Shown: positions 7,262 to 10,182 of the stretch, one piece after another
Numbering within the stretch: the stretch's first letter is position 1
How the letters are laid out: every line of letters starts with the position of its first letter
Position numbers and translations under genes: made by a program
The notes under the pieces: model-generated
The model's database searches: none
Told to the model about the DNA's origin: nothing
Seen by the model: the letters and a program-made list of their open reading frames with translations, nothing else
DNA from: an uncultured cyanobacterium
GTDB taxonomy: Bacteria > Cyanobacteriota > Cyanobacteriia > PCC-9006 > JAAUQQ01
DNA: 64,000 bases
Reading direction: 5' to 3'
Assembly (NCBI GenBank): GCA_963718615.1
Contig: OY970368.1
Span: 1,504,001 to 1,568,000, forward strand

Positions 7262-7573
7262 CTATAAAGCGTTGATCTTGTCGGTCAGATGCTGATCGTG
7301 AAACAGGTCTATTCCTACCGCTGACTTGATTAAATAGAGCAGGATTGCCAAACTCAGACTGACAAACACATTCAGACTAATTAATAAAAATGCCGCAACC
7401 AGTCCATTCACGACTCGCTCCGTCCCCGTGAGTTGGCGATCGCGACTCTTCTCCCGTCGCTCTTTCCCCATCAACAAAACTACATAATAGCGAGACACCA
7501 AAAGATTGATCCCAAACCGGACATCCAACACCTTATTTTTAGTATCCGTATCTGTCAGAGGGCCGTCTGTCAT
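7262..7573 (-). CDS. Small membrane hypothetical protein
   Basis: ATG 7573 overlaps the upstream stop (ATGA); DVRFGINLL...YYVVLLMGKERR...LYLIKSAVGIDLF. Confidence 0.7.
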   Translation of the reverse strand: MTDGPLTDTDTKNKVLDVRFGINLLVSRYYVVLLMGKERREKSRDRQLTGTERVVNGLVAAFLLISLNVFVSLSLAILLYLIKSAVGIDLFHDQHLTDKINAL

Positions 7574-8016
7574 ACCAACCACCCTAGGGCCAAAGCCCCG
7601 CCCCACCAGAACGTCAATAAATATCGCCAAATTTGTGCAGGACCCCGCCGTTGCCACAGTTGAGACGTAAACGCCAGTAGGTTCAACAACAACATGCCCA
7701 AAAACCACAGCAGAAGCAGCGTCATCGCCCATTGAGACGGTGCATTCCAGGGAGAGATCGCCTCCCAAGGCCCTGGCCAAGGCCGACGGGCTACGGCAAC
7801 CCACAGCAGCAGGGTGAGGCCAAGATTAGACAAGAAGATCGATTCAGTTGTCGTCCAAACAATATACAGGAGGACGAGGAACGTGGCGATCGCCAAGCCC
7901 TCAGGAGCCTCAAACAGCCGCAAGAGCCATCCCCCCGCGAAGCAACCCAGCGGAGCCAAAACCAGGCCGATTTGACCGAGGAAAAGAGCAGGGTATTTTT
8001 TTGCAGAAAGCTCCAT
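7570..8016 (-). CDS. Hypothetical integral membrane protein
   Basis: Several hydrophobic helices; co-oriented downstream of aroF. Confidence 0.65.
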   Translation of the reverse strand: MELSAKKYPALFLGQIGLVLAPLGCFAGGWLLRLFEAPEGLAIATFLVLLYIVWTTTESIFLSNLGLTLLLWVAVARRPWPGPWEAISPWNAPSQWAMTLLLLWFLGMLLLNLLAFTSQLWQRRGPAQIWRYLLTFWWGGALALGWLV

Positions 8017-8093: not shown

Positions 8094-8966
8094 TTAGACA
8101 GTGGCGAGTTGGCGATCGCGAGGGGATGCGGAGGGGGCTTGGGCAATCGACCGACCGAGGGCCGCAGCAAGGGGACGCAGGCTTTCGATCAGGTCGGCCA
8201 TGGCTTCGAGGGACAGGGTTTGTTGGGCATCGGAAATGGCTGCGTCGGGGCGAGGGTGACATTCAATGATCAGACCATCGGCTCCAGCGGCGATCGCAGC
8301 CTTGGCCAGACCTGCCACGAGGTCACGCCGTCCGGCAGCATGGCTAGGATCAACGATGACCGGTAAATGGGTGAGCTGTTTGAGGGCGACAACGGCACCG
8401 AGGTCTAGAACATTGCGGGTGTAGGTGTCGAAGCTGCGAATCCCCCGTTCGCAAAGAACCACGTTGGGGTTGCCATGGCTGGCGATATATTCTGCGGCCA
8501 TGATGAATTCTTCCAGCGTGGCGGCAAGACCCCGCTTGAGCAAAATCGGTTTGTCGGTTTCGCCGAGGGCCTTGAGCAGGTCGAAGTTTTGCATATTGCG
8601 GCTGCCCACTTGGAGCATATCGGCGGCATCGGCGAGGGTTTCAATTTGGGAAATCGCCATGACCTCGGTGACGACCGGTAAGCCTTGGCGTTGGCGAACC
8701 TGACGGACAATCTCCAGTCCCGGTGCGCCTACACCTTGGAAGTCGTAGGGAGAGGTGCGGGGCTTATAGATACCGCCACGCAAGGCTTGAATGGGGGCGG
8801 GTTTGAGGGTTTGGGCGATTTCTTCCATGATCTCAAGGCTTTCGATCGCGCAGGGACCCGCAGCGATGAAGAGTTCTGGGCCACCGATGAGGATGCTGTC
8901 GCTGAGGGCGATCGGGGTGGTGGGGTGGGTAGGGGTGGGTTTGCTGACGAGGGGTGCGGGTTTCAT
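8094..8966 (-). CDS. aroF: DAHP synthase (type I-beta), short form without the N-terminal regulatory domain
   Basis: AGPCAIES, KPRTSPYDFQG, GSRNMQNF, LLKRG, LCERGIR and DPSHAAG motifs; 290 aa. Confidence 0.95.
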   Translation of the reverse strand: MKPAPLVSKPTPTHPTTPIALSDSILIGGPELFIAAGPCAIESLEIMEEIAQTLKPAPIQALRGGIYKPRTSPYDFQGVGAPGLEIVRQVRQRQGLPVVTEVMAISQIETLADAADMLQVGSRNMQNFDLLKALGETDKPILLKRGLAATLEEFIMAAEYIASHGNPNVVLCERGIRSFDTYTRNVLDLGAVVALKQLTHLPVIVDPSHAAGRRDLVAGLAKAAIAAGADGLIIECHPRPDAAISDAQQTLSLEAMADLIESLRPLAAALGRSIAQAPSASPRDRQLATV

Positions 8967-8978
8967 GGTTGTGTTCTC

Positions 8979-9010
8979 GGTGATGGGGTAGTGGGGTGAT
9001 GGGGTGATGG
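8979..9010. repeat. Short tandem octamer repeat (GGGGTGAT-like)
   Basis: GGTGATGGGGTAGTGGGGTGATGGGGTGATGG in the aroF 5' UTR. Confidence 0.7.
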
Positions 9011-9035
9011 AAAAACTGGGGAGGGCTGGGGCATT

Positions 9036-9063
9036 AAAAAACCGCAGCCCTTGGACTGCGGTT
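9036..9063 (-). terminator. Intrinsic terminator in the aroF leader (attenuator)
   Basis: Minus strand AACCGCAGTC-CAAG-GGCTGCGG-TTTTTT, about 70 nt upstream of the aroF ATG. Confidence 0.85.
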
Positions 9064-9097
9064 CACCTGGAGAGTTTTGGGTATCAGCGCTTAGCGC

Positions 9098-9151
9098 TCA
9101 CTCCAGGTGAACCTCCATAAACCAAAAAAAGTAAAACTTGTTAGAAAACAT
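9098..9151 (-). CDS. Putative aromatic-rich leader peptide MFSNKFYFFWFMEVHLE
   Basis: ATG TTT TCT AAC AAG TTT TAC TTT TTT TGG TTT ATG GAG GTT CAC CTG GAG TGA: six consecutive aromatic codons directly before paired helices and a terminator. No clear SD. Confidence 0.72.
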   Translation of the reverse strand: MFSNKFYFFWFMEVHLE

Positions 9152-9229
9152 GATGGGTGCGGGTTTGGGTTGACTTTTCGCCAAAATGAAAATTCTTGTG
9201 CCGGGACAATCGCTAATGTCCTTGTCTGT

Positions 9230-9259
9230 AAGGTAACAACTGTTTTTGGCAATTGTCAA
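9230..9259 (-). promoter_or_regulatory. Sigma70-type promoter for leader-aroF
   Basis: TTGACA (9259-9254), 18-bp spacer ending in TGT, then TACCTT (9235-9230). Confidence 0.65.
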
Positions 9260-9468
9260 ACGTTTGATCGGTCTTAATTTGGGGCTAATTCACGCTAGCG
9301 CCTCAGAGTCCTTGCATGAAAGCGATTTAGCAACTCTTCAGCAAACCCTGTAGCCAAGCTCAGGGTTCTCTCATCTTTCCCTAGGACCCTGCGGCTACAT
9401 TAAAGCCATCGCATGAGAGCTATCGCATTAGCCCACCCACCCCAACCACTTGAAATCAGCTAAGACCC

Positions 9469-10182
9469 ATGGCACAACCAAAGAGTAAGTTTCTAAAATA
9501 TATCGTGATTGGCACTGTCGTTGCTGGGCTCCTCGTCCTGGCGAAGCAATTTGATCTCCAAACAGTTTTTCACAATGCTCTGCTCTGGGTCGATAGCCTC
9601 GGTGCTTGGGGGCCGATCGCCTTCATCATCATCTATAACCTCGCGACCATTTTGTTCCTGCCCGGATCGCTGCTCACCCTCGGCGGTGGCGTGCTCTTCG
9701 GCGTGGTCAAAGGTTCCCTCTACGTTTTTATGGCTGCCCTCGTTGGAGCCACCCTCGCCTTTTTGATTGGTCGCTACGTGGCGCGGGGCTGGGTCTCGGG
9801 CAAGATTGCCGGGAATCAGAAATTTCGGGTGATTGATGAGGCGATCGCCAAAGAAGGTTTCAAAATCGTTCTCCTCACCCGCCTTTCCCCCATCTTCCCC
9901 TTCAACTTGCTCAACTATGCCCTCGGCCTTACCCAGGTTTCTCTCAAGGATTATGTCCTGGGGTCCTTGGGGATGCTACCGGGAACGATTATGTATGTTT
10001 ATATCGGTTCCTTAGCCGGTAGCCTTGCCACGATTGGCATGGAAACCATCGATCCCCAAACGGCACGCATCCAGTGGATTATCCGCATCGTCGGTTTTAT
10101 CGCCACCGTCGCTGTTACCCTCTACGTCACCAAAGTTGCCAAAAAAGCCCTAGACAACTCGGTTGAAAATGCAACCTTATAA
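9469..10182 (+). CDS. TVP38/TMEM64 (DedA/VTT domain) membrane protein
   Basis: LFLPGSLLTLGGGVLFG and LTRLSPIFPFNLLNYALG motifs. Confidence 0.92.
   Translation: MAQPKSKFLKYIVIGTVVAGLLVLAKQFDLQTVFHNALLWVDSLGAWGPIAFIIIYNLATILFLPGSLLTLGGGVLFGVVKGSLYVFMAALVGATLAFLIGRYVARGWVSGKIAGNQKFRVIDEAIAKEGFKIVLLTRLSPIFPFNLLNYALGLTQVSLKDYVLGSLGMLPGTIMYVYIGSLAGSLATIGMETIDPQTARIQWIIRIVGFIATVAVTLYVTKVAKKALDNSVENATL

Follow-up and report, generated by a model that had tools for sequence, protein, structure and literature searches.

How does a cyanobacterium govern the entry of carbon into the aromatic pathway when the enzyme at that entry appears to carry no regulatory domain of its own? The question is raised by a locus in a 64,000-nucleotide stretch of contig OY970368.1 from an uncultured cyanobacterium (the whole stretch is called the window here), whose minus strand encodes a DAHP synthase (3-deoxy-7-phosphoheptulonate synthase), the enzyme that commits carbon to phenylalanine, tyrosine and tryptophan and to many cyanobacterial secondary metabolites. 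The region just upstream of the gene suggests an answer: it very probably holds a ribosome-mediated, three-segment transcription attenuator that controls this DAHP synthase through a short leader peptide rich in aromatic residues. The attenuator reading is based on sequence elements, conservation, compensatory changes, fixed spacing and energetics, all of them computational; leader translation, stalling, the geometry of the ribosome footprint, in vivo termination and the sign of the response are what we infer.

The gene product, 290 residues long, scores 394 bits against NCBIfam model NF006421 (cut-off 335) and 357.4 bits against TIGR01361 (cut-off 267.75). Because the match, made by residues 6-273, covers just positions 71-336 of the 338 in NF006421, the protein lacks an N-terminal extension; only the catalytic part of the profiles is covered, and no regulatory domain is present. 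A preliminary description of this DNA had named the gene aroF; both profiles bear out DAHP synthase, while aroF is only a loose name for a DAHP synthase of type I-beta. DAHP synthases of the bare catalytic type are not known to be subject to feedback inhibition, and for that reason transcriptional control may be the main regulator of the enzyme here.

Elements of the leader and the proposed switch

The elements on which the argument turns, in the order in which they would be transcribed, are these.

9259-9254, minus strand: -35 box TTGACA, found by direct reading and by pattern match
9235-9230, minus strand: -10 box TACCTT, 18-nt spacer to the -35 box, with TGT just before it as in an extended -10
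9151-9098, minus strand: leader open reading frame (ORF) of 17 codons plus TGA, MFSNKFYFFWFMEVHLE, with ATG at 9151 and TGA at 9100-9098
9136-9119, minus strand: aromatic codon run TTT TAC TTT TTT TGG TTT (F Y F F W F), the proposed sensor
9113-9101, minus strand: segment 1, the 5' arm of the antiterminator helix, GGTTCACCTGGAG, within the final five codons of the leader
9098-9086, minus strand: inner hairpin AGCGC-TAA-GCGCT, starting at the last base of the stop codon and enclosed by the 13-bp helix
9072-9060, minus strand: segment 2, the 3' arm of the antiterminator helix, CTCCAGGTGAACC, whose final 5 nt, GAACC (9064-9060), are the base of the terminator 5' arm
9064-9036, minus strand: intrinsic terminator GAACCGCAGTC-CAAG-GGCTGCGGTTT, 11-bp stem, ending in six T (9041-9036)
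8966-8094, minus strand: type I-beta DAHP synthase gene, 290 residues, from the ORF and the profile match

The promoter, leader ORF, helix, inner hairpin and terminator had all been named in the preliminary description, and each was recovered where it had been placed. Transcription would start around 9224-9222 on the minus strand. The aromatic codons make up 6 of the 17 in the leader and are consecutive; no other aromatic short ORF with a terminator after it occurs in the 64-kb window. An inverted-repeat finder reports the antiterminator helix as 13 nt with 100% complementarity and 28 nt between the arms (in RNA letters, segment 1 is GGUUCACCUGGAG and segment 2 is CUCCAGGUGAACC). A base shared by helix and terminator had been described as 4 nt long; the sharing stands, and its length becomes 5 nt, GAACC at 9064-9060, when a G-U pair is counted. 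For the 196-nt leader the folding energy is -61.7 kcal/mol (z = -3.95), a value matched by 0 of 200 shuffles.

An in-frame TTG at 9184 would lengthen the leader to 28 residues (MAKSQPKPAPIM…, 9184-9098); ATG 9151 is the codon that aligns with the conserved start of the family.

In the mechanism that we propose, a sigma-70-type promoter would yield a transcript with the 17-codon leader as its first reading frame. With charged Phe-, Tyr- and Trp-tRNAs ample, the ribosome would reach the UGA and mask segment 1, the full terminator would form, and transcription would end near 9036-9041, leaving a discrete transcript of about 185 nt. Should any of the three charged tRNAs become scarce, the ribosome would stall in the F-Y-F-F-W run with its leading edge just short of segment 1, and segment 1, left free, would enter a 13-bp helix that withholds GAACC, at the cost of the terminator base beside the U-tract. 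The residual 6-bp hairpin would be set off from the U-tract by GG, and RNA polymerase would continue into the gene. Untranslated RNA would by default allow read-through; because the antiterminator is expected to win when no ribosome is present, loss of the start codon is predicted to de-attenuate the gene and raise read-through, the opposite of what holds for a classical four-segment trp leader.

Conservation upstream of orthologous genes

Comparison of the DAHP synthase protein with a collection of species-representative genomes returned 515 relatives, of which the best 80 loci were used throughout. The relatives named are all cyanobacteria or cyanobacterial metagenome-assembled genomes (MAGs), belonging to Pseudanabaenaceae, Leptolyngbyaceae, Nostocales, Oscillatoriales, Coleofasciculaceae and others, at identities of 65-80%. 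The 450 nt upstream of the gene were examined for their best short ORF, scored as aromatic if a 7-residue stretch held at least 5 aromatic residues; locus L019, with upstream DNA of only 74 nt, was omitted from this test. Of the 80 upstream regions tested, 79 from the loci and one from the window itself, 79 have such an ORF; among the controls it occurs in 22 of 1304 other 450-nt windows taken from those loci, in 2 of 80 shuffles and in 0 of 80 reverse complements.

Two covariance models were constructed, R1 from 76 sequences of the element found in the window, designated module A, and R2 from 70 sequences of a further element, module B, considered below. At scores of at least 62 bits, R1 identifies module A upstream of the orthologous gene in 76 of the 80 loci, among them L026, which was not one of the model-building sequences. 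In the 64-kb window it has a single match, 9031-9151, at 87.6 bits. R1 has no match in four of the 80 loci: L003, L023, L061 and L019, the one with 74 nt of upstream DNA. Inspection by eye of L061 (2110-2260; 2355-2472) shows a variant, A-like first leader, MQSTRFSFWFTQGCT, whose final codons and downstream partner have changed together with the helix kept. The second module of that locus is found by R2 at 37.5 bits.

The -35 sequence TTGAC is present in 65 of the 76 module A loci, and in most loci TAnnnT follows 17-18 nt after TTGACN, the spacer usually ending in TGT or TGC. Taken by itself, the promoter pattern in the window lacks significance, because its count of two (TTGACA-N16-18-TANNNT, 0.61 expected) is reached by 12 of 100 shuffles; its support is conservation. 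A chance meeting of an ORF and a hairpin in an intergenic region could call on this, and on a generic consensus scan that left both promoter and terminator unflagged, but the z-score of the fold, the conservation, the covariation described below and the synteny over 76 loci exclude chance so nearly that we regard such an origin as vanishingly improbable.

A palindrome, TTTGaCAATTGcCAAA, lies over the -35 box at 9245-9260 and was considered as an operator; it was set aside, as the same palindrome is unconserved at other promoters. At many related promoters, different short inverted repeats adjoin or span the -35 box, for instance GTTGTGG…CCNCCAAC in Nostocales and, in some Leptolyngbya, CCCGATCGGG; they may be operators or simply mark where upstream genes end.

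Selection on the leader codons

Module A leaders are 16-21 residues long, stop at TGA in 70 of 76 cases and follow the consensus M-x5-YFYFWF-xx-VH-xx-stop. Their four core run positions are aromatic in 69, 73, 76 and 76 of the 76 leaders (294 of 304 alignment cells); F, Y and W interchange at these positions, where non-aromatic codons one base away are almost absent. Phenylalanine, tyrosine and tryptophan are all represented in 75 of the 76 module A leaders and in 69 of the 70 module B leaders. The ATG, the frame and the stop are kept, and the codons between the ATG and the run vary in sequence and, by whole codons, in length. As read from these alignments, selection on the peptide is for aromaticity only.

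The consensus also has a conserved Val-His beyond the run. In L013, L031 and L040, CAC has become CGC (His to Arg) and the partner arm of the antiterminator helix has changed too (column pair 71:114, GC in 3 sequences); in L006, L012, L017 and L018, GTT has become GCT (Val to Ala), once more with a change in the partner arm (pair 68:117, CG in 4 sequences). Because the codon changes at Val-His are matched in the partner arm, the conservation of these two residues is best read as a constraint on the RNA, not on the peptide.

Covariation of the competing helices

In the module A alignment, the antiterminator helix is paired in 89.7% of cells, and 8 of its 13 pairs, in 51 cells, are changed on both sides. 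None of 500 shuffles reaches its covariation score, and controls in which the helix was slid along the alignment are 31-55% paired. The terminator, GAACCGCAG-loop-CTGCGGTTT, stands 21-33 nt past the stop codon, and its nine core pairs are formed in 99.3% of cells (75 distinct sequences). RNAalifold, supplied with no structure, recovers the antiterminator helix together with the top four pairs of the terminator. The bases of GAACC, which both helices use, behave in the alignment as those of a two-state switch would: A to G in shared column 116 leaves U-G in the helix and a compensated G-C in the terminator, and A to G in shared column 117 leaves a compensated C-G in the helix and G-U in the terminator. 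The preliminary description had proposed aligning the upstream regions of relatives, with non-conservation as a reason to abandon the idea; in the alignment the aromatic run and the covarying helices are both conserved.

The inner hairpin reaches -3 kcal/mol or lower in 69 of 76 sequences, with a mean of -4.95 against -1.63 in shuffles, and its sequences are lineage-specific. It may act as a pause hairpin or as a stabiliser of the antiterminator; it sits in the loop of the helix and is not an anti-antiterminator.

A unit with its own promoter, a strong terminator and a discrete transcript of about 185 nt might instead be the gene for a separate trans-acting small RNA, an aromatic micropeptide, or both, with the adjacency of DAHP synthase incidental or secondary. 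Functions in trans have been described for the trpL attenuator RNA and leader peptide of Sinorhizobium, to the extent covered by the available text. The unit, however, immediately precedes the same gene in 76 of 80 loci, its peptide is variable outside the aromatic run once Val-His is accounted for by RNA pairing, and its terminator shares bases with a conserved competing helix, an arrangement that an ordinary small-RNA terminator would not need. We consider a separate trans-acting unit unlikely; a role in trans besides attenuation is possible.

Spacing and folding under a masking ribosome

Spacing between the aromatic run, segment 1 and the stop codon is nearly constant: counted from the first base of the Trp codon, segment 1 begins 11 nt on in 72 of 76 module A leaders, and from the first base of segment 1 the stop codon begins 13 nt on in 70 of 76. 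The consequences of this spacing were modelled by constrained folding of the window RNA from 9226 to 9039, with an assumed ribosome footprint of -15 to +11 around the first A-site base, a figure from ribosome-profiling practice. With no ribosome on the RNA, the helix holds GAACC at a modelled probability of 0.94 and the terminator base forms at 0.05. When one of codons 6-9 (F Y F F) is in the A site, the values are 0.78-0.97 for the helix and 0.03-0.21 for the terminator base; when one of codons 12-18 is there, the stop included, the helix falls to 0 and the terminator base rises to 0.77-0.90. Module A of locus L045 gives the same masking pattern as the window.

Local energies are -40.8 kcal/mol for the full helix with the top of the terminator stem, -36.8 kcal/mol for a truncated helix with the full terminator and -24.7 kcal/mol for the terminator alone, and with the arm free the antiterminator state is about 4 kcal/mol the more stable. 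The shortness of the overlap, a caveat in the preliminary description, loses some of its force, for what the helix removes is the terminator base by the U-tract, and it does so with that advantage in stability. The logic proposed there, by which a ribosome at the stop masks the 5' arm and a stalled ribosome frees the helix, agrees with the conservation, the compensatory changes in two helices, the geometry and the masking folds.

A second module in most relatives

Most of the relatives carry a second element between module A and the gene. The leader of module B reads M-x4-SWFYGFYFWPRxSSG-stop and is followed by GCCCGGAAC-loop-GTTCCGGGC-T6. At scores of at least 37 bits, R2 finds module B in 75 of the 80 loci, five of which took no part in model building; it finds none in the window or in L001, L004, L005, L020 and L019. 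The order A, then B, then gene holds in 72 of 80 loci, as in L045, with module A at 2030-2149, module B at 2172-2295 and the gene start at 2501. Module A is alone in four loci and the window (four of these five are labelled Pseudanabaenaceae MAGs, the closest relatives of the window), and module B is alone, by model, in three loci.

The final codons of the module B leader, AGT TCC GGG, copy the terminator 3' arm and can sequester the entire terminator 5' arm, so that the overlap is complete (in L045 the arms lie at 2223-2233 and 2263-2287; columns 127-136, 174-183 and 196-206 of alignment A2). Pairing is found in 91.8% of cells for the antiterminator and 93.6% for the terminator, with four pairs changed on both sides in each. 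The Trp codon stands 12 nt before the arm in 59 of 70 sequences, and the stop 9 nt after the start of the arm in 68 of 70. Modules A and B thus share a design while appearing unrelated in sequence, which points to independent convergence.

An extra helix in module B between the Trp-Pro-Arg codons and the terminator 3' arm, seen in the L045 fold, is paired in 78.7% of cells; it was rejected, since 466 of 500 shuffles reach that figure. Each model also matches sites of the other weakly (R1 at L025 2306-2426, 28.3 bits; R2 at L024 2108-2224, 26.9 bits), which may reflect no more than the aromatic run and terminator that both have, or may go back to an old duplication.

Taken at the scale of the phylum, these elements suggest, on what we judge a little better than an even chance, a phylum-wide family of attenuators, undescribed until now, that would control entry into the shikimate pathway by reading the charging of all three aromatic tRNAs together, mostly through two non-homologous modules in series whose effects would multiply into a sharper response.

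Points that weigh against the proposed attenuator

Several observations count against an attenuator of this kind. The 80 loci are the best of 515, hence their breadth is skewed to close relatives, and the covariation cells are counts of related sequences, not of independent events. To these may be added the promoter and terminator that the generic scan passed over. The design requires tight coupling of leader translation to transcription, and the literature searched contained nothing that establishes such coupling in cyanobacteria.

The folds supply further points. In the masking model the Trp codon (codon 10) in the A site gives an ambiguous result, helix 0.53 and terminator base 0.42, and the last Phe (codon 11) already favours the terminator base (0.76, helix 0.20). 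Sensing of all three aromatic amino acids, as the preliminary description had it, finds backing in the leaders, nearly all of which have F, Y and W, while for Trp it appears marginal in an equilibrium model. For an A site placed on any of codons 1-4, GAACC is in the helix at just 0.19-0.51. A fold of 196 nt with a longer 3' flank places a shortened helix beside a 9-bp terminator, and the outcome of folding thus depends, in these models, on the transcript end chosen. The overlap of 5 nt is small, and the residual 6-bp hairpin, followed by GGUUUUUU, might still bring about partial termination. For module B of L045, the equilibrium model favours the terminator when codons 10-14 occupy the A site, in spite of an unmasked arm (-26.6 against -22.1 kcal/mol), and kinetic trapping would have to be assumed.

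Initiation of the leader is a further point. Of the 76 module A leaders, 72 have nothing resembling a Shine-Dalgarno motif. The preliminary description had listed the want of a clear one in the window as a caveat, which is softened in that the absence looks, across the aligned leaders, like a trait of the whole family. Cyanobacterial genes without the motif compensate with weaker 5' structure, according to the available part of one report (PMC6847405).

That compensation might be taken to favour a post-transcriptional switch, in which leader translation and the hairpins control the stability, processing or translation of the mRNA and no premature termination occurs. The sequence CCCCAGCCCT on the minus strand at 9022-9031, just past the U-tract, is 90% complementary to the terminator 3' arm at 9042-9051, and its pairing there could refold a read-through mRNA. 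Such a switch would leave unexplained a canonical intrinsic terminator with U6, conserved in 99.3% of cells, and the addition of a second full terminator in the tandem loci; moreover, the distance from the hairpin to the start codon is 69 nt in the window and reaches about 320 nt in relatives, too great for occlusion of the start site. Control without premature termination is accordingly, in our estimate, highly improbable.

Comparison with known systems

Against Rfam, the window from 8700 to 9600 gave 10 matches at E values up to 10, none at its gathering score, the best overlapping one being sbrA at 22.4 bits against a required 45. The tandem region of L045 gave 3 matches at E values up to 1, all far under the gathering score. 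The curated Trp, Phe, His, Thr and Leu leaders are among the families that go unmatched. Five of five leader peptides of 20-29 residues matched 0 families in NCBIfam and in Pfam at E values up to 10 in each library, the peptide of the window being scanned in its 28-residue, TTG-extended form instead of the 17-residue form.

The Rfam result bears on a different kind of switch, one set by an RNA-binding factor (a protein, a tRNA or an aromatic metabolite), with the short ORF a side effect of U-rich sequence needed for binding. Candidate binding sites would be the U-rich tract and the conserved inner hairpin, and protein-mediated control of a trp leader exists in Bacillus. Yet no T-box, riboswitch or other Rfam family is matched, the run exchanges F, Y and W codons with one another and almost never with non-aromatic codons one base away, the ATG, frame, stop and run-to-arm spacing are all kept, and two modules unrelated in sequence have only the logic of an aromatic ORF in common. 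A switch of that kind is most unlikely. The Bacillus example remains instructive for its geometry: in the B. subtilis trp leader, antiterminator and terminator overlap by a few bases and are nevertheless exclusive, as proposed here, the choice being set there by the Trp-activated RNA-binding protein TRAP and here, on our proposal, by a translating ribosome.

Classical trp-type attenuators have four segments (pairing 1:2, 2:3 and 3:4) and show super-attenuation when the leader is untranslated. The enterobacterial trpL, pheL and pheM leaders resemble the system described here in that leader translation is coupled to a choice between terminator and antiterminator and the codons name the end product of the pathway, as set out in the available part of a review (PMC11802643). 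They differ in that the cyanobacterial element has three segments, with the antiterminator 5' arm in the last codons of the leader, and would by default be read through when untranslated. Module A accordingly has what marks ribosome-mediated attenuators, namely an aromatic ORF, a terminator, a mutually exclusive helix and apt placement of codons and stop; it falls outside the four-segment trp class, having three segments and an untranslated RNA that favours the antiterminator (0.94 against 0.05).

The two short ORFs of the Salmonella mgtCBR leader sense different signals. They share one leader, and each affects stem-loops, to judge from the available text (PMC3641672), much as modules A and B follow one another in 72 of 80 loci. 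In the cyanobacterial modules both ORFs have F, Y and W runs, and the window, with a single module, lacks the tandem altogether.

The closest functional analogue, where sources available in part allow the comparison, is aroR of Corynebacterium glutamicum, a short leader with Phe-Tyr-Phe upstream of the aroF operon, in which stalling raises transcription (Neshat et al. 2014, as reported in PMC11802643). It responds to limitation for Phe and not for Tyr, and no Trp codon is mentioned in the part of the account available (PMC11802643). Both systems place an aromatic short ORF before a DAHP synthase gene; the cyanobacterial ones belong to another phylum, have runs of 5-7 with F, Y and W, and are mostly in tandem, the comparison being one of descriptions only.

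Within the cyanobacteria, searches of the openly accessible literature turned up neither a leader peptide nor an attenuator described ahead of a DAHP synthase gene, and the statement in the preliminary description that no characterised counterpart was known holds over the literature searched. The main text of a survey of RNA structures in 202 cyanobacterial genomes (2026; PMC12873609) has none of the terms DAHP, aromatic, attenuat, leader peptide, aroG or phosphoheptulonate; its supplementary tables may list the locus. The nearest cyanobacterial case is Sml0012 of Synechocystis, a validated 45-residue protein encoded upstream of aroQ, for which the authors of a 2026 ribosome-profiling preprint suggest a role as an attenuator peptide (bioRxiv 10.64898/2025.12.20.695498). 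It too is a small ORF before a shikimate-pathway gene, unlike the present one in that the gene is a different one (3-dehydroquinate dehydratase) and the passage available describes no aromatic run, terminator or antiterminator. The small peptide RNA ncl0160 of Nostoc was considered as an identity for the element and rejected: its peptides have 23-25 residues, always a ribosome-binding site and mostly TAA or TAG stops (PMC4734099), unlike module A leaders. By this comparison the sequence family is new, while the kind of regulator is a textbook one.

Other features of the locus

One further feature lies inside the 69-nt spacer between terminator and start codon:

9010-8979, minus strand: 8-nt tandem repeat in four copies, CCCCATCA-like on this strand

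An array of (GGGGTGAT)n upstream of the leader in L023 is the reverse complement of a unit similar to this repeat. The HIP1 palindrome typical of cyanobacteria, GCGATCGC, has 99 copies in the window, whose G+C content is 53.7%, in keeping with the cyanobacterial relatives found for the gene. At 8862-8907 on the plus strand, antisense to part of the DAHP synthase coding sequence, is a weak match to sR1, an archaeal C/D-box snoRNA (25 bits against a gathering score of 45), most likely by chance. Neither neighbouring ORF has an NCBIfam match: the divergent one upstream (9469-10182, plus strand) encodes a hydrophobic product of 237 residues and the one downstream (7570-8016, minus strand) a hydrophobic product of 148 residues.

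Implications

Should the phylum-wide family exist as outlined, cyanobacteria would gain their first solid example of leader-peptide attenuation, a 2016 survey having stated that reliable data on attenuation were lacking for the phylum (PMC4833913). It would imply close coupling of transcription and translation in cyanobacteria, which are without Rho (PMC13613805), and the element offers a direct test of whether that coupling is tight enough for attenuation. Interest attaches to a phylum with no documented mechanism of this kind, to the reading of three aromatic amino acids at the committed step and to the second, unrelated module in most relatives. For those who engineer strains to produce aromatic compounds the leader is a target, as its deletion or recoding should deregulate the pathway. 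For the organism itself, control of a DAHP synthase that has no regulatory domain would find its explanation in a conserved, modular RNA switch responsive to aromatic amino acids, which would also give a concrete account of regulation at this step of the pathway.

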